Assembly (NCBI GenBank): GCA_947627675.1
Contig: CANQWY010000001.1
Span: 5,334 to 69,333 of the forward strand
Length of the DNA stretch: 64,000 nucleotides
DNA from: an uncultured Bacilli bacterium
Lineage (GTDB): Bacteria; Bacillota_I; Bacilli_A; RF39; UBA660
Direction: 5' to 3'
Both the position numbers and the translations under genes were made by a program. Of this stretch, positions 191-19,158 are shown one piece after another. Position 1 is the stretch's first letter. Each line of letters begins with the position of its first letter. The notes beneath the pieces are model-generated. The model saw only the letters and a list, made by a program, of their open reading frames with translations. It was not told where the DNA came from and ran no database searches.

Positions 191-332
191 GTTGCTTATT
201 GTAAAATTTTGTAAATATTAGGAAGGGTTGTTTACAATTTTTATTATTGATGATAAACTTGTAATGTAAGAATATAAATATGGTAGGAAGATGTATGTTC
301 TTACTTCTAGAATATTAATAGGAGGTGTTAAT

Positions 333-632
333 ATGGCAAGTGGTAATGGAACTTTTATGATGGATCCTGCAGCAGTTCAGCAAAGTGGAACAAATTTCCA
401 AAATTTTTCGATTAGATATAGCACAGAGATGAATAATTTACGCAATGTAATAGAAGATTTAGGCCGTTGCTGGAAATCCGAAGATTATAATCAGTTTCTT
501 CAAATTTATCAACAAAATGCTGAAGTTATTCAACAAATGAGTAAGGCATTTGCATCTTTTGGTGAAGTTTTAACAACAACTGGTACTAATGCAGTACAAA
601 AAAGTGAAGATTTAAGAGCTTCATTTAAATAA
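333..632 (+). CDS. WXG100 (ESAT-6/EsxA/YukE-like) family small helical protein, 99 aa
   Basis: Start revised to the ATG at 333, preceded by the AGGAGG RBS; the track start at 291 has no RBS. The length is about 100 aa. The central segment DLGRCWKSEDYNQF aligns with the DLKSMWEGASSEAF core of YukE/EsxA, with WXG degenerated to WKS. The N-terminus FMMDPAAVQQSG resembles the conserved I-V-PEEL region. Confidence 0.55.
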   Translation: MASGNGTFMMDPAAVQQSGTNFQNFSIRYSTEMNNLRNVIEDLGRCWKSEDYNQFLQIYQQNAEVIQQMSKAFASFGEVLTTTGTNAVQKSEDLRASFK

Positions 633-652
633 TTTTATAGGAGGAATAATAT

Positions 653-973
653 ATGAATGGTACATCATTTGACCATGGTAAGGCAGTTAGCGATGCTGAA
701 CAAATTTTATCTATTGCTAATAGAGTAGAGTCTTTATTTGGAGAAACTGATACAGAAATCGCAAAGATACAGCAATATTGGCAATCATCTACATCTCAAG
801 ATAGTGCAGGCAATGCCATTGCTCTTTATAATAGCTATAAGGCTAATTTTACAAGCTTTATAAATCAAATAAAGACAAAAGCAAATGAAATATATCGATC
901 TAGTGAAACTTATACAGAGGTTGAAAATCAAGCTAATAAAAATGTTGAATCTGGTTATCGTATTAATAGTTAA
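653..973 (+). CDS. WXG100-like / Lap-like small helical protein, 106 aa
   Basis: Strong RBS (TAGGAGGAATAATAT-ATG). About 100 aa, with a central Trp (QQYWQSSTSQDSAG) in a predicted helix-turn-helix. It forms a tandem pair with the preceding WXG100-like gene. Confidence 0.45.
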   Translation: MNGTSFDHGKAVSDAEQILSIANRVESLFGETDTEIAKIQQYWQSSTSQDSAGNAIALYNSYKANFTSFINQIKTKANEIYRSSETYTEVENQANKNVESGYRINS

Positions 974-1061: not shown

Positions 1062-1550
1062 ATGGCACAAATTACAAGCTTATTGCAATGTTTTGATGTT
1101 AATATCGCAAATAAATATATATCTAGTTTAGATCAAGTTATATCTGAATTAAAATATAATAAAGAAAATATATCATCAAAGTGGGAATATTTTGGAAAAG
1201 ATACATTTTATTTTGGAAATTGTACTCCAATACAAGATAAAATGACAAATATTTCTAGTAAAATAGATGAAACTATTAAGAAAATTCAAAATATTGAAGA
1301 TAGCATTATGAAAAATTGTTTGATACAAAGAAGACAAGATTTGCAAAGCTATATTGTTTATTGTGACGAAATGATAAAATCATTAAATGGAAAAACAAAA
1401 AATACTACTACTCTTATAGGTTCCAATAGCGATTACCAAACTTTTTTAAGTTCTATAGAGAGAAAAAAACAATCGTGGGCAGATAAAAAAAGAATAGCCG
1501 AAGAAGAACTTACAGCAGTAAGAAAAGAAGTAGCAAAATATTATGCATAG
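1062..1550 (+). CDS. Hypothetical helical protein, 162 aa, in the size range of T7SS adaptors/chaperones (LapA2/EsaE-like position)
   Basis: Strong RBS (AATAGGAGGAAAAA-ATG). The sequence is largely predicted helical/coiled-coil. I recognise no motif; placement in the operon is the main evidence for a role. Confidence 0.5.
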   Translation: MAQITSLLQCFDVNIANKYISSLDQVISELKYNKENISSKWEYFGKDTFYFGNCTPIQDKMTNISSKIDETIKKIQNIEDSIMKNCLIQRRQDLQSYIVYCDEMIKSLNGKTKNTTTLIGSNSDYQTFLSSIERKKQSWADKKRIAEEELTAVRKEVAKYYA

Positions 1551-1573
1551 ATTTTATGGGAGGAGTTGTTAAA

Positions 1574-3385
1574 ATGAGTTTAGGGAATGATTATATTTGG
1601 TATTATAATAGTAACAATATTGAAGAATGTAGCAGCATAGTAGAAGAACTACAAAAGAAAATGATTGATCTAACTAGTGAAAATTATAGTGTTTCTGATA
1701 TTTTGAAAAATATAACGAGAGATTTATCTAATATAAATGATTTTAGTAGTATTGCTAATAATTTTAATGTAGCGATTACTTCATTAGATGAATTAAAAAA
1801 AGATTTTGATACTACAGTAGCGTTAATTGATGATATAAGAACTAAAAATATTGAATTAGAAAAAAGTGCTAATTCAAATATTGACAATGCTTATAATTTA
1901 AGTGCTAATTTTTCTTTTGATAAAACAAATATTCAAAAAATAACACTAGATGCAACTGAATATAGCAAGCTGAAAAATTTTTTTGGAGTTAATAACACAA
2001 GCAATAGCAGTTCTGCTTCAACAGTTGCTACGCCTTTAGTAGCGGGTGCTACAAATCTTAATAATTATTTTTCTAATGGGAATATTAGTTTACCTAAATC
2101 TTCAAATAATAATTTAAAAAGTTCTAGTGTTACAAGTGCAGGAACTATTTCTTTAGCTGCTGGAATTTTAGATCCTACCACTGGAAAGATTGAAACATTT
2201 ACTCCAAATAAAGAAGCAGTATTTAGTAATAATAATGATAATAAAAATAATACTCCTAAAAGTACAAATACTAATAATATTTCATCCAAAAAGGAAATGA
2301 CATCTGACAATAAAAATACAAAAGATAGTACTACAAAAGTAGTAAATAAAAGTACTAATTCTATTAATAATATTACCAGTAGTACTAATAATATCTCAAG
2401 TAATACCAAGAGCAAAACTTCTCCTTCTGTTGCTGCCGTTATCACAACAAGTGGTGCTACTAGTTCAAAGGCTGTTAAAAAAGCAGTTTCTAATATTTCA
2501 CAAAAAAGCATAAAGAAAGAATTTTCTTCTAGTGAGGTTATAGAACCTAAAATAAAGGATACTTCAACAGTTAGCAGAGTTCCTAATTTTGATAATAAAG
2601 ATAAGTTGTTTGAAGAATTAAAACCAAATACAAGTGACAGAAATGATACAATTAAAGATTTTATTAATAAAAATAATATTAATTTTTCTTCTAATAGTAG
2701 CACTAGTCCATCTAAACCTTCTCAAGATAATAATTCTAATACAGTATCTAATAATGTGACTGACTCTAATAATTCTACTTCTAATTATTATACTAATTCT
2801 GGTTTTACCGGCAATACAAATGCTTCAGCTAGTAGTAATGTCAATTCTTCTAATTTAAATAATAACAATGGATATTATAAAATGAACAATCAGCCAGCTG
2901 CTTCTTCTGGTGAAACTCAGACTACAGTTATACCAGAAGTTGATAGTAGTACTAATGTTGATGTTCCAGATACTTCAACTGATAATTTATTTAATGTTGA
3001 TTCTAATCTTGATGATTATATTGATGTTGATATAGATAAATCAGCAGATATTGGCAAAGCTTCAGGTATTGGTGGAGTTATTCCAATTGTGGCAGGAGTT
3101 GGAGCCGCAACAGCTGCTGGAATTGGCGCTAAAATATATAAAGACAGAAAAGAAAATAATGAATTTGATTTAGATGAAGATAGATTATCAAATGAAAATA
3201 AATTTTGGACAGACGAAGATGCTTCAGTAATTCATAGTGAAAAAGAAATATACTCTGATGATGCAGATGGTAATGTTAATTCTACGTATCAAGCTACTTC
3301 TAATGATTTGGATGATAATGATACTTGGAGTATGCCTGATGAAGTTGATAAAAATAGTACCATTGATTTACTAGAAGGCAATTAG
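1574..3385 (+). CDS. Large low-complexity protein with an N-terminal helical domain and a C-terminal Gly/Ala-zipper transmembrane helix; candidate LXG-like/TspA-TelE-like effector
   Basis: Start revised to the ATG at 1574, with the RBS GGGAGGAG 9 nt upstream. The N-terminal ~150 aa are helical. About 330 aa are rich in Ser/Asn/Thr/Lys. A single TM helix GIGGVIPIVAGVGAATAAGIGA has small-xxx-small periodicity. An acidic ~85-aa tail follows. No known catalytic toxin motif was recognised. Confidence 0.5.
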   Translation: MSLGNDYIWYYNSNNIEECSSIVEELQKKMIDLTSENYSVSDILKNITRDLSNINDFSSIANNFNVAITSLDELKKDFDTTVALIDDIRTKNIELEKSANSNIDNAYNLSANFSFDKTNIQKITLDATEYSKLKNFFGVNNTSNSSSASTVATPLVAGATNLNNYFSNGNISLPKSSNNNLKSSSVTSAGTISLAAGILDPTTGKIETFTPNKEAVFSNNNDNKNNTPKSTNTNNISSKKEMTSDNKNTKDSTTKVVNKSTNSINNITSSTNNISSNTKSKTSPSVAAVITTSGATSSKAVKKAVSNISQKSIKKEFSSSEVIEPKIKDTSTVSRVPNFDNKDKLFEELKPNTSDRNDTIKDFINKNNINFSSNSSTSPSKPSQDNNSNTVSNNVTDSNNSTSNYYTNSGFTGNTNASASSNVNSSNLNNNNGYYKMNNQPAASSGETQTTVIPEVDSSTNVDVPDTSTDNLFNVDSNLDDYIDVDIDKSADIGKASGIGGVIPIVAGVGAATAAGIGAKIYKDRKENNEFDLDEDRLSNENKFWTDEDASVIHSEKEIYSDDADGNVNSTYQATSNDLDDNDTWSMPDEVDKNSTIDLLEGN

Positions 3386-3395
3386 GAGAATAAAT

Positions 3396-3785
3396 ATGGA
3401 AAATAGAGAATTTTTACCTATAGGATCAGTTGTTTTATTAAAAGGTGGAGAAAAAAAAGTTATGATTACTGGTTTTTGTATGACACCGAATGAAAATAAA
3501 CATAAGATATACGATTATAGTGGCTGCTTATATCCTGAAGGAATCGTTAATTCTAATGAAATATTTTTATTTGATAATAAGCAAATAGCTGAGGTGTATT
3601 TTAAAGGATACATTGATGAAGAAGAGTCTGATTTTAAAAGTGAACTTAAAGAGACTATTAAAGAATTAAAGGTAGATGATGATAATAATATAGTTAGTGA
3701 AAATTTATCTGACACCATTTCAGTTATAGAAAATCCATTTGATCTTAATCAAACATTTGAACCTAAAATTAATATCTTTGAGTAA
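3396..3785 (+). CDS. DUF4176-like protein, 129 aa
   Basis: RBS TTAGGAGAATAAAT-ATG. The N-terminal LPIGSVVLLKGGEKKVMITG matches, from memory, the conserved start of DUF4176 proteins, a family commonly encoded next to T7SSb/LXG genes. An HMM search is needed. Confidence 0.5.
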   Translation: MENREFLPIGSVVLLKGGEKKVMITGFCMTPNENKHKIYDYSGCLYPEGIVNSNEIFLFDNKQIAEVYFKGYIDEEESDFKSELKETIKELKVDDDNNIVSENLSDTISVIENPFDLNQTFEPKINIFE

Positions 3786-10039: not shown

Positions 10040-12631
<2,592 letters not shown>

Positions 12632-16239: not shown

Positions 16240-19158
16240 ATGGAAAAGTATAATAAAATTAATAATAAAGGTTTTACATTGATTGAGGTTATTGCAGCAG
16301 TTGCAATATTAGGAATTTTAAGTGGTACAGCAATTACGGGTGTTTCTCGATATGTTAGTAATTCACATGAGGAATATTGTACGTCCCAAGCTGATATGCT
16401 AGAAATAGCAGGACGTGACTATTTTAATGATAATAATACATTGCTTCCATTAACAATGGGCGGAAGAAATTGTGTTAGCCTCCAAACATTGATTAATAAT
16501 AAATATATAGAGACAATGAAAGACTACAGTGATAGTGTTTGTAATGTAAATAATAGTAAAGTATGTACGATGAAACATATAGCAAGTGGCTATATATATT
16601 CAACATACTTAGATTGTAATAGATGTAACAATTATAATAAAAGCAGCCAAGATGATTTAAATGAAAGTAATGTAAGCACACCAACAATTTCTTATATTGC
16701 AGATACAACTCCAGCTGGAAGCTGTACCAATGCAGTAAATAAAGATATAACAGTAACAATAAAATTTAGTGATAGTAAACATAAAATAGTAAGTTATTCA
16801 TATACAGTTTACCAAAAAACAAATTCAGGTGATGTGGCAGTAGAAACAATAGATTATAGAGAATACAAAAATAAAGATATAAAAGTAAAACTAAATAGAA
16901 AGGGAACTTACTATATAGTAGCAACAGCATATAATTCAATAGGGAAAAAAGGAGAAGAGAAAAGTTGCGACTATGTACTTAGATATAATTTAAATTGTAG
17001 CAGTCAAATTGAAATAAGTGCTAAGAAAAAAGAAACAGGAGCCAATCTTTCTAGACAAACATGGATGAAAGGGACATTACAAATTACTGTTAAAAAAAGT
17101 GGTGATGTTGAAAGTTATGATGTGTACATAAGTAAAAGTAATGGAACTTCTGGAGCCTCATTTGGAGCATATCAAAAAGTAATATCACTGGCAACTGCTC
17201 AAAGTAGAACTATAACCTATAGTAGTAGTGAGACAGGAAAATATAGAGTAAAAGTAGTTGCTTATAATGATCAAGGTGATACATGTACAAAAGGAGGAGA
17301 TTCAACATTTGAATATTGGCAAGATAATACAGATCCTACTTGTACAACTGTGGGAGCACCAGGTCGCTGGGTGAATTACAATGTTACATTAACAGGAAGA
17401 TGTTCAGATCCTCATAGTGGATGTGATAATTCTAAACCTGCTTCTAATTATCTTTCCTATGAGTATGATGGCTATGCTAGTGCTGGGCGAGTATATGATA
17501 ATGTAGGTAATGTTGGTTATTGTAATGATGTGTGGATTGGAATTGATAAAACACCTCCAACATGTGAAATAGAGCTTGATGGAGATGAAGGAAATAATGA
17601 TTACTATATAAGTGATGTTACTGCAAATCTAAGTTTTGAAGATCCAGGTGAAATAACAAGTGAAGCAGAAAACTATGGAATTTCAACTTCAAGTTCACCA
17701 ACTTATAACGGCAGTCAAACTTATACTCATAGTTCTAATACAAATAATTATGTTAATGTTTATGGATATATTAAAGATAATGCCGGTAATACTGGAAAAT
17801 GTAGTGAAAAATTTAAGTTAGATAAAACACCTCCAACATATAGAAAAAATTCTGTTCAGGGAACAAGAGTTGGTAGTGGTTATGCCGATGGTTCAATGTT
17901 ATCAGTTACTTGTAGTGATGTTGGTAGTGGACCTATAAATACTAGTGATCAAGTTTATTTTTACGGTTCTGAAGCAACATTAAATGGGTATTGTGAGGAT
18001 AAGGCTGGTAATGTCTCAGATGAATATGATATAACATATCATAATTGTCCAAATAGCTTGTGTGGTTATGACGTAGATTATAATATAAGATGGAATTGCT
18101 ATAATTCTTATGGGAATCTAATATCTTCTCCATGTGAGTCAAGTAGCAATTATTTTCCAGCATGTTGTATGCAAGCTGAGAATTACTGTAGTGGAGAGTC
18201 GAGTTCATCATGCGGAGTAAAATCTAGAACAAAAAAAACATGCTGGCATCAAAGTAGTTGTCAAAGCAATACTACCACTTCCCCACCTAAAGTTAATGAC
18301 AAAACACCTCCAGGCTGTCCTAGTGTTTCTTCAGATTATTCGCCTAATTCAAAAGGTTGGACCAATAAAAATGTGAAATTAACATTTTCATTTACATCAG
18401 ATACAAAAAAATATACATTCTATACTAAAGAACAAAGCAGCTCATCTTGGAAGAATAATGGTACTAAAAATGTTTCCACAAAAAGACAAACTATATCACA
18501 AGAAGGAATTATAAGTACAAAAGTTGATGTATATGATGCTAGTGGAAATAAAAAGACTTGTACTTTTACAGATAAATATAAAATTGATAAGACAGCTCCT
18601 TACACTCCCTACATTGATAAAAATGACACAAAAAATATTGATGGTGAGACAGTAAAAGTAAACTATTATGGGGATTGTGATAAAGCTTGTGCTAGCGCAA
18701 ACCCTGGTAATAAGAATAGTGCTTCATTGCAAAGTAGTGGTAAAACCTGTTTTACTGACTTAAAATGTAGTGTTGGTGCAAAATCAAAAGTGGCTGCAGA
18801 ATGCGTTTATAGTAAAGATTATTCTTGCGGTACTGTAAAAGTTGTTAAAAAAGATAGTACTGATAATACTCCTAATGTTTCTGGTATTTGTACAGATAAT
18901 TCAGATACATATGGATATCAATACTATAATTGTGTTAGAAAAGAAGGCTCAACAACTTTTTCAGATCATACTATTAGAAAAGTTCAAATTACAGATTGTG
19001 CTGGCAATAAAAGTAAAGTACTTACTATTTCTGAATTAGGTGCCCACATTTATGGAATAGGCTTAAAATCTTATTATCAAATTTCAAATAATAAATGGAC
19101 ACTCAGAAGTGGAAAAACAAGACCTAGTAGCTTCACCTCTAGTTGTTATTTAAACTGA
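16240..19158 (+). CDS. Giant modular type IV pilin-like protein (972 aa), Cys-rich with repeated Ig-like modules
   Basis: N-terminus MEKYNKINNKG|FTLIEVIAAVAILGILSG is a class III signal with Glu at +5. About 950 aa of Cys/Ser/Thr/Asn-rich sequence follow, with four recurring DKTPP/DKTAP module boundaries (IDKTPPTC, LDKTPPTY, NDKTPPGC, IDKTAPYTPY). Confidence 0.75.
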   Translation: MEKYNKINNKGFTLIEVIAAVAILGILSGTAITGVSRYVSNSHEEYCTSQADMLEIAGRDYFNDNNTLLPLTMGGRNCVSLQTLINNKYIETMKDYSDSVCNVNNSKVCTMKHIASGYIYSTYLDCNRCNNYNKSSQDDLNESNVSTPTISYIADTTPAGSCTNAVNKDITVTIKFSDSKHKIVSYSYTVYQKTNSGDVAVETIDYREYKNKDIKVKLNRKGTYYIVATAYNSIGKKGEEKSCDYVLRYNLNCSSQIEISAKKKETGANLSRQTWMKGTLQITVKKSGDVESYDVYISKSNGTSGASFGAYQKVISLATAQSRTITYSSSETGKYRVKVVAYNDQGDTCTKGGDSTFEYWQDNTDPTCTTVGAPGRWVNYNVTLTGRCSDPHSGCDNSKPASNYLSYEYDGYASAGRVYDNVGNVGYCNDVWIGIDKTPPTCEIELDGDEGNNDYYISDVTANLSFEDPGEITSEAENYGISTSSSPTYNGSQTYTHSSNTNNYVNVYGYIKDNAGNTGKCSEKFKLDKTPPTYRKNSVQGTRVGSGYADGSMLSVTCSDVGSGPINTSDQVYFYGSEATLNGYCEDKAGNVSDEYDITYHNCPNSLCGYDVDYNIRWNCYNSYGNLISSPCESSSNYFPACCMQAENYCSGESSSSCGVKSRTKKTCWHQSSCQSNTTTSPPKVNDKTPPGCPSVSSDYSPNSKGWTNKNVKLTFSFTSDTKKYTFYTKEQSSSSWKNNGTKNVSTKRQTISQEGIISTKVDVYDASGNKKTCTFTDKYKIDKTAPYTPYIDKNDTKNIDGETVKVNYYGDCDKACASANPGNKNSASLQSSGKTCFTDLKCSVGAKSKVAAECVYSKDYSCGTVKVVKKDSTDNTPNVSGICTDNSDTYGYQYYNCVRKEGSTTFSDHTIRKVQITDCAGNKSKVLTISELGAHIYGIGLKSYYQISNNKWTLRSGKTRPSSFTSSCYLN

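Follow-up and report, generated by a model that had tools for sequence, protein, structure and literature searches.

The fourth gene of a compact five-gene cassette in a 64,000-nucleotide (nt) stretch of DNA from an uncultured Bacilli bacterium (contig CANQWY010000001.1 of assembly GCA_947627675.1; the window, below) encodes a 603-residue protein, the target of this study, which is very probably a large substrate, or possibly an accessory, of a module of the T7SS type (T7SS, type VII secretion system) with an N-terminal hairpin, co-evolving partners and a DUF4176 chaperone. Tentatively, we favor a more specific reading in which the T7SS exports the protein and leaves it anchored with its N-terminus outside and its C-terminus inside the cell (N-out/C-in), as the oligomerizing anchor of a long surface stalk. 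A T7SS setting had been guessed from the architecture alone in an earlier note on this DNA, and the gene neighborhood agrees with it: WXG100 genes lie upstream of the target, a DUF4176 gene lies downstream, and in two related loci (L022 and L100) a gene for an EssC-size ATPase is found 3–7 kb from the cassette.

Translation of the target starts at ATG 1574 and not at the in-frame ATG 1556, as indicated by the homologue alignment, and the ribosome-binding site (RBS) is GGGAGGAG. The AlphaFold2 model, built on a 51-sequence alignment of the family, has a confident helix-turn-helix hairpin near the N-terminus (Table 1), while residues 142–518 show pLDDT values (predicted local distance difference test) below 50. 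These values and the composition (18% Ser, 18% Asn, 11% Thr and 9% Lys over residues 161–500) confirm the low-complexity linker described in the earlier note. The acidic tail is confirmed too, residues 520–603 containing 25 Asp/Glu versus 8 Lys/Arg for a net charge of −17. Linker length and content differ widely in the relatives, which show coiled coil, Pro/Thr (PT)-rich stretches and CW_7 repeats. Low complexity rich in Ser/Asn/Thr is in part characteristic of this genome, a similar stretch being present in a PilB-like ATPase encoded at 10040–12631. The tail is predicted to be disordered in isolation, and in an AlphaFold2 model of the C-terminal 134 residues (pLDDT 53) it adopts no fold. No LPxTG motif was found in the target, nor a hydrophobic N-terminus or signal peptide in any of the 51 family members.

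Residues 498–519 form the sole strongly hydrophobic segment of the target, 84 residues from the C-terminus and in good agreement with the position of ~85 first given for it: the Kyte-Doolittle 19-residue maximum (1.86) falls here, and the next-best window N-terminal of the helix reaches 1.05, at residue 181. Small residues recur within the helix with a spacing of four (A507-A511-A515-A519, G508-A512-G516 and G510-A514-G518), so that the small-xxx-small periodicity seen at the outset is present in the sequence, and it is conserved across the 51 members. The strict glycine-zipper consensus, (G/A/S)xxxGxxxG or GxxxGxxx(G/S/T), as quoted in PMC12744356, is absent, since the motif reads GxxxAxxxG and the predicted helix has no pair of glycines four apart.

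What the relatives have in common is the C-terminal ~110 residues, helix plus tail, which can be aligned to the very end. Word-index searches with the full protein, the N-terminus or the C-terminus returned the target itself or nothing; the relatives came from an exhaustive HMMER search through 1.84 billion cluster representatives, which returned 62 family proteins at E ≤ 1e-3 (23 at E ≤ 1e-10), each representing a cluster at 50% identity and most of them 420–970 residues long. The helix is the most conserved part of the family. Across the 51 aligned sequences an i+4 stripe (P504 92%, G508 98%, A512 98%, G516 96%, K520 100%) continues into the tail (D524 88%, N528 100%, D532 94%, D536 88%) and spans nine turns (nt 3083–3181) at 88–100% conservation, and a second stripe is formed by G510 (80%), A514 (94%) and G518 (100%). 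A conserved i+4 stripe is the pattern made by helix-helix packing, suggesting that the helix is not a passive anchor. Conservation in the tail is highest at W545 (100%), Y572 (98%), A574 (98%) and L599 (94%), with conserved linear motifs reaching the C-terminal end (D598-L599-L600). Three relatives additionally carry a CW_7 peptidoglycan-binding repeat (best E 7.6e-14, approximately residues 143–200), located ~250 residues N-terminal of the helix and followed by PT-rich repeats and a coiled coil; PT-rich and coiled-coil spacers are common among the relatives.

In Pfam and NCBIfam the architecture of the target matches no family, and neither curated families nor the literature yielded a description of it; single-helix components do appear in a survey of T7SS variants, but the present family does not (PMC11217815). 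The earlier suspicion that the architecture was undescribed has therefore held up. For the proposed kinship with TspA/TelE-type toxins, sequence comparison gave no support: the C-terminal region has no Pfam or NCBIfam match, and none of the zipper-toxin families, solved or curated, could be linked to it by sequence. None of the family members matched LXG, WXG100 or toxin families in a Pfam scan. Where TelE, EsxX and TspA are compared with the target here, the comparison is with their published descriptions and not by pairwise sequence alignment. Searching PDB sequences with a profile or a peptide of the helix and tail yielded nothing significant, the PetG match at E 1.4 being a chance hit, and a phage origin was rejected because a scan of viral contigs turned up no relatives.

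The five genes form a tight same-strand cluster in the order WXG100, WXG100-like protein 2, helical partner, target and small DUF4176. The WXG100 gene is kept as the first cassette gene in related loci. WXG100-like protein 2 is a weaker match to the same models (Pfam WXG100 E 1e-3, TIGR03930 E 7.6e-5), and the YxxxD/E near its C-terminus is kept in 9 of 14 orthologues. The helical partner has no family match in Pfam or NCBIfam, and its gene is always directly upstream of the target gene; all three small helical proteins encoded upstream fall below a match to the Lap families (DUF3130, DUF3958, DUF5082 and DUF5344), the best being DUF3958 at E 0.019 in one orthologue only. The DUF4176 protein matches one sequence of solved structure, PDB 9DCS (E 2e-12), which is the small DUF4176 protein of Streptococcus intermedius GC1825, and on deletion of that gene the LXG toxin TelD loses its cytoplasmic stability and export (PMC12478183; PMC9600955). 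An adjacent DUF4176 gene is one mark of T7SSb substrates that depend on a DUF4176 (Ltc/Lcp) chaperone, and the target has such a gene, with conserved adjacency; judging from features of its model and sequence, the regions that might be bound by the chaperone are the disordered linker and tail and the weakly hydrophobic helix.

The cassette is retained as a unit across two branches of relatives. The close branch comprises 14 loci from the C-terminal profile scan, one genome per species, from gut and rumen metagenome-assembled genomes labelled uncultured Bacilli, Clostridia and Erysipelotrichaceae and from Clostridium sp. CAG:417, with GC contents of 25–31%. By open reading frame (ORF) calling and clustering the five-gene order is identical in all 14. 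The cassette is followed by lepA in 10 of the 14, with hemW next wherever the sequence reaches, and in the window lepA is likewise the next gene, with a promoter-like site of its own. On the other side rpsT-gpr-(VTT)-spoIIP precedes the cassette in six loci (L007, L010 and L013–L016, at ~1–7.5 kb, with VTT). This neighborhood resembles rpsT-gpr-spoIIP...lepA-hemN, which we take to be the order in B. subtilis. In the distant branch (L017, L018 and L022–L027) the cassette, in which three genes for small helical proteins are joined by those for a long protein and DUF4176, occupies a fixed site beside spoVE (FtsW family) and CotZ-like genes, and the tail of the long protein terminates in ...KYxARxxxELADLQ. 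A metagenome scan gave 82 matches, of which 80 loci were kept. The DUF4176 gene is directly downstream of the target orthologue in 14/14 close-branch loci, and it directly follows the target gene in 49 of the 61 loci from the distant branch and the metagenomes whose downstream sequence is long enough. Cassettes in more than 80 loci were accompanied by no DUF443, DUF5085 or polytopic immunity-like gene.

Among the loci with long flanks, just two, both in the distant branch, have a gene of EssC size within 10 kb of the cassette: L022 has a gene for a 1524-residue FtsK_SpoIIIE protein, followed by a YukD-like gene, ~7 kb upstream of the cassette, and L100 has one for a 1528-residue FtsK_SpoIIIE protein (E 3.2e-34) 3.2 kb downstream. 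In all 14 close-branch genomes the cassette is unlinked to an EssC-size gene. ORFs of this or nearly this size in other loci were rejected, as the one in L065 is PolC (Pfam), the one in L039 is a helicase, and the one in L077 is probably PolC, from its identical size and gene order. Together, the WXG100 and DUF4176 genes in the operon, the homology to 9DCS, the synteny of the cassette, the EssC-size neighbors and the YxxxD/E motif argue for a link to T7SS.

Copies of parts of the cassette are found in some relatives. L008 (3891–5605), L011 (10676–13508) and L012 (10675–13937) each have a tandem second module of helical partner plus target-like protein (with or without DUF4176), with only one WXG100 pair in front of the two; in L008 the anchor module of the second copy is the same but its head is different, and those in L011 and L012 have a diverged helix and tail. 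Separately, a shorter paralogous module is encoded downstream of the cassette in the distant-branch loci L100 (10718–12671), L039 (10744–12767) and L060 (10721–12014), consisting of a 143–205-residue helical protein and a 243–432-residue protein, with its own DUF4176 in some loci; the latter protein is built from a hairpin, a linker, a G/A-rich helix (NTVPIGLGIA...), a K-rich patch and an acidic tail. A further T7SS-style module in L022 (4368–7886) has a DUF4176 gene upstream of a gene for an 831-residue protein, in which a long hydrophobic region is rich in Gly; an 88-residue ORF comes next.

The two ends of the target evolve very differently. Among genomes in which LepA is 74–83% identical to that of the window, identities to the window are 43–65% for helix plus tail and 57–69% for DUF4176, 17–76% for the WXG100-type pair, and 19–30% for the target hairpin and 21–34% for the helical partner. 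The low values for both hairpin and helical partner suggest that the head and its upstream partner change fast and together, and the similar values for helix plus tail and DUF4176 that the anchor module and DUF4176 are conserved together. Charge also differs between the two sides of the helix: the 51 members have on average 3.6 Lys+Arg in the 15 residues after it versus 1.2 before it, and a mean net charge of −18 in the tail. This excess of Lys/Arg after the helix, combined with the position of CW_7 on its N-terminal side, favors a topology with the N-terminus outside and the C-terminus inside. As the ~500-residue N-terminal region has no signal peptide, placing it outside would need a dedicated exporter, and the neighboring genes point to T7SS.

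The hairpin itself has the size and shape of a WXG100-type helix-turn-helix in the AlphaFold2 model, and at ~100 residues it compares with ~200 for an LXG domain. The comparison with LXG suggested in the earlier note gave no match: PF04740 matched neither the target (E ≤ 1) nor any of the 51 family members (E ≤ 0.01), and a search of PDB sequences with a hairpin profile retrieved no LXG chain at E ≤ 10 and no WXG100 structure at a significant E-value. The matches that it did return were generic coiled coils (an MCP hairpin, syntaxin and IncA) and were discarded. A Foldseek search of the model against PDB gave nothing below E 1, only generic hairpins and EsxA at a non-significant TM-score of ~0.5. 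The Pfam WXG100 model (PF06013) does not match the hairpin, and hhalign aligned it with WXG100-like protein 2 over 89 columns at a low probability (21%) and with the WXG100 protein of the operon at 0.7%.

A mechanism that would accommodate these features begins in the cytoplasm, where the hairpin would pair with the helical partner, which is the product of the preceding gene and co-evolves fast with it. The two proteins of WXG100 type, one with YxxxE, would probably join the pair to form a helical-bundle export signal. Meanwhile the small DUF4176 protein might shield the weakly hydrophobic Gly/Ala helix, the disordered tail, or both. An EssC-type T7SS encoded elsewhere in the genome would then export the N-terminal ~500 residues, and the conserved helix would stay in the membrane of the producer with its N-terminus out and its C-terminus in. 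There the helix may pack through its P-G-A-G-K stripe, either with copies of itself as a homo-oligomer or with some conserved partner in the membrane, while the acidic tail remains cytoplasmic, so that a long flexible stalk would tether a variable helical head at the cell surface. It is possible, if rather doubtful, that the family represents a class of surface protein new to science, single-pass and N-out, which lacks a signal peptide and is inserted by the T7SS into the membrane of the producer; an EssC-type machine would in that case export the head and several hundred residues of stalk, and the Gly/Ala helix, handled beforehand by the small DUF4176 chaperone, would be released laterally, oligomerize and serve as the anchor.

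Several observations weigh against the anchored surface stalk. Full-text literature searches turned up no case of a T7SS substrate remaining in the membrane as an integral single-pass protein, and the binding of TspA is only peripheral (PMC7456083). For an anchor, the helix is conserved beyond need, it resembles the toxic zippers of TelE and EsxX (PMC10434224; PMC12744356), and small DUF4176 genes typically accompany membrane-depolarizing toxins (PMC12478183). No T7SS core gene lies within the 64-kb window, helix and tail lack a confident AlphaFold2 model, and the evidence that favors the N-out/C-in topology, positive-inside statistics and three CW_7-bearing relatives, is indirect. An unlikely but serious alternative, the one suggested in the earlier note, is that the target is a T7SS-secreted depolarizing or pore-forming toxin of the TelE/EsxX/TspA/TelD kind whose helix would insert into a target membrane and oligomerize into an ion channel, with the small DUF4176 protein neutralizing and stabilizing the toxin inside the producer. 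TelE (458–480/514) and EsxX (448–479/517) likewise have a zipper-like helix near the C-terminus (bioRxiv 10.64898/2026.03.12.711312; PMC12744356), the conserved stripe of small residues implies oligomerization, and the modules are duplicated in tandem in some genomes. The operon follows the logic of lapD1-lapD2-telD-tipD-tipD-DUF4176, immunity excepted (PMC9600955), and its DUF4176 protein is a homologue of the chaperone of TelD; binding of small DUF4176 proteins to the helices by which such toxins insert into membranes is a speculation put forward in PMC12478183. TelD has a DUF443 immunity family in common with the depolarizing TspA, its own depolarizing activity being unvalidated (PMC9600955). 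The toxin interpretation is countered, however, by the missing immunity gene, as every characterized zipper toxin has adjacent immunity, by the lack of an LXG domain and of a strict GxxxGxxxG motif, and by the pattern of variation: the supposed toxin module is constant and the targeting head variable, whereas in TspA the C-terminal domain is the polymorphic part (PMC7456083). The locus is moreover fixed in a housekeeping region, and the single helix, flanked by a Lys/Arg patch and the 84-residue tail, would likely have to carry this tail of net charge −17 over the target membrane against the membrane potential. We lean towards the anchor because of this lack of immunity, the fixed core-genome position, the constant anchor with its variable head, the wall-spanning-type spacers of very variable length, the CW_7 repeats, the positive-inside flanks, and the difficulty of moving a tail of charge −17 into a target cell. 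A surface anchor was also the alternative named in the earlier note; fixed locus, variable head, flanking charges and CW_7 speak for it, but the helix is too conserved for the "simple" anchor envisaged there.

Two further explanations part with the idea of a substrate. Quite improbably, the target might be an accessory or structural part of a clostridial or Bacilli T7SS variant, its helix and cytoplasmic tail docking to EssC or other membrane subunits and its stalk spanning the wall, along the lines proposed for EsaA/TsdI. In favor of this, the gene is conserved, passed on vertically and mostly present once per genome, the EssC-YukD genes are directly downstream of the cassette in L100 and close to it in L022, the D598-L599-L600 motifs could bind an ATPase, and single-helix components with unstructured cytoplasmic regions are known from T7SS variants (TsdH; PMC11217815). 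This fits poorly with the rarity of EssC-size genes near the cassette noted above, and hairpin, partner and chaperone are the trappings of a substrate; the head, too, is hypervariable. Very unlikely, finally, is a protein with no link to secretion, either an ordinary tail-anchored (N-in, C-out) or a soluble low-complexity protein with coincidental neighbors. It would agree with the absence of T7SS core genes from the window and with the low-complexity expansions common in the source genome, but not with a five-gene order kept among the genomes compared by LepA and in the distant branch, nor with a Lys/Arg patch C-terminal and a CW_7 wall-binding repeat N-terminal of the helix. The idea that the zipper protein serves as an export channel for the WXG100 proteins was dropped, having no support beyond the oligomerization stripe.

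By analogy, the cassette is closest to the telD cluster in operon logic, to TelE and EsxX in protein layout and to TspA in genomic behavior. Like the cassette, the telD operon of S. intermedius GC1825 (PMC9600955; PMC12478183) has small helical partner genes upstream, an effector with an N-terminal helical targeting domain and a small DUF4176 gene downstream; the cassette differs in having no detectable LXG domain, no DUF3130/DUF3958 partners and no DUF443 immunity genes, in a C-terminal module of one helix plus acidic tail, and in its fixed core-genome position. TelE (S. gallolyticus) and EsxX (S. aureus ST398) share with the target the small-residue zipper near the C-terminus, a length of ~500–600 residues, Lap-type partners (matched in the cassette by position), a C-terminal module, in their case the toxin domain, in no recognized Pfam family and, for TelE, a DUF4176 chaperone, LcpE (PMC10434224; PMC12744356; bioRxiv 10.64898/2026.03.12.711312). 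They differ from the target in their PF04740 LXG domains, in strict GxxxG repeats and in tails that are short, at ~35 residues, in place of an 84-residue tail with conserved W545, Y572 and L599, together with adjacent immunity genes (DUF5085 TipE/ExiAB; polytopic ExiCD). TspA (Staphylococcus aureus), another substrate of a T7SS, is found in all strains with its gene at a distance from the ess locus, and it stays on the outer face of the membrane of the producer (PMC7456083), which may be likened to the anchoring proposed for the target; it differs in being peripheral (urea-extractable), in its colicin-Ia-like C-terminal domain, and in being followed by arrays of DUF443 immunity genes.

At the level of single proteins, the first two cassette genes resemble EsxA/EsxB-type WXG100 pairs (~100 residues; W-x-S in one, W-x-S plus YxxxE in the other), and the hairpin as modelled would have the same size and shape, but it falls below any WXG100 model and is fused to ~500 further residues that include a membrane helix. 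M-protein-like LPXTG-anchored surface proteins have a comparable design, with a variable helical head, a coiled-coil, PT-rich or Ser/Thr-rich spacer and a C-terminal hydrophobic segment followed by Lys/Arg; the target departs from them in having neither signal peptide nor LPXTG, in its long conserved acidic tail and in its T7SS-type neighbors.

Table 1. Features of the cassette and other genes described in the text (positions in the window, nt).
Feature	Position	Strand	Evidence or remark
Sigma-A-type promoter-like site, TTTACA-N17-TAAACT, extended TG	231..259	+	scan
Leader inverted repeat TAAGAATATA (267–276) / TATGTTCTTA (294–303), between promoter and RBS	267..303	+	
WXG100 protein, 99 aa, W-K-S at nt 471–479	333..632	+	PF06013 E 1.5e-8, TIGR03930 E 1.7e-10
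WXG100-like protein 2, 106 aa, W-Q-S at nt 779–787, YxxxE at nt 911–925	653..973	+	
Fast-evolving helical partner, 162 aa, placed like a Lap-type targeting factor	1062..1550	+	
RBS of the target	1558..1565		
Target ORF, 603 aa	1574..3385	+	identical protein present in NCBI, ENA and Logan assemblies
N-terminal helix-turn-helix hairpin, aa 13–109	1610..1900	+	AlphaFold2 pLDDT ~90
Disordered S/N/T/K-rich linker, aa 142–497	1997..3064	+	pLDDT <50 and composition
Predicted Gly/Ala small-xxx-small transmembrane helix GIGGVIPIVAGVGAATAAGIGA, aa 498–519	3065..3130	+	84 aa from C-terminus
Conserved acidic tail, aa 520–603, opening with K/R-rich KIYKDRK	3131..3382	+	alignment
Small DUF4176 protein, 129 aa, presumed cytoplasmic chaperone	3396..3785	+	PF13780 E 2.7e-29
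T2SSE/PilB-type ATPase, C-terminal extension of ~470 aa	10040..12631	-	ATPase part aa 8–391
972-aa protein with N-terminal prepilin methylation motif	16240..19158	+	near PilB-like ATPase

The sequence upstream of the cassette is conserved as well. TTTAC(A/T)-N17-TAnACT aligns upstream of the first cassette gene in related loci, and the leader element is present in all related loci of both branches, ~30–70 nt upstream of the first cassette gene (L003–L018, L022, L024, L025, L039, L060 and L069). In the relatives it takes the form TAAGAATATA...TAT(A/G)TTCTTA, the loop often containing AGGAGG or GGTAGG, and the TTCTTA of the 3' arm is invariant in 12 aligned leaders; TATTCTTA lies just upstream of the cassette in both branches. 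RNAalifold predicts a conserved 6-bp stem for the 12 leaders, with no covariation or compensatory changes, and Rfam contains no match to the element, which judging from its sequence could be an RNA hairpin or a protein-binding DNA operator. A role in sporulation was set aside, as the promoter is sigma-A-like and the association with sporulation genes may only mirror the conserved gene order of spore-formers. The cassette does lie beside such genes in two independent fixed contexts, and a link to sporulation is possible.

Much of the remainder of the window is occupied by housekeeping genes (mutS, alaS, dnaK, gyrBA, topA and femAB) and it also encodes sporulation proteins, the SpoIVB peptidase and the YlbD coat protein. 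The extension of the PilB-like ATPase is Asn/Ser/Lys-rich, with three tandem copies of ~60 residues and a poly-Asn run, which is unusual for an ATPase of type IV pili or of competence. At ~31.2–31.8 kb both gene orientation and GC/AT skew flip, near the peak of the cumulative GC skew at ~32 kb, with mostly plus-strand genes and positive skew to the left and mostly minus-strand genes and negative skew to the right; the flip could reflect a replication terminus-like switch or a purine bias of the coding strand. The 64 kb contain no tRNA gene and no Rfam family at the gathering threshold, including the regions upstream of alaS and of other genes that often have T-box or riboswitch leaders.

The current view of the T7SS in Bacillota is that it serves the export of WXG100 proteins and of LXG toxins that have immunity proteins as counterparts. 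The cassette draws on the same list of parts (two WXG100-type proteins, a helical partner that co-evolves with the target, and a chaperone of the small DUF4176 kind), but its conserved business end is a single, presumably oligomerizing, membrane helix followed by a tail that looks cytoplasmic. No immunity gene goes with it, and many lineages of gut and rumen inherit it as they would a housekeeping locus. Should the target prove to be an anchor, T7SS would be able to build tethered surface structures, and surface display and membrane-protein biogenesis would join the roles of T7SS in widespread uncultured spore-forming Bacilli and Clostridia of the gut. Should it prove to be a toxin, it would be the first zipper toxin family without linked immunity and a direct client for a small DUF4176 protein. 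Either way, the target belongs to a sizeable family for which Pfam and NCBIfam have no model, with testable residues at P504, G508, A512, G516, K520, N528, W545, Y572 and L599.

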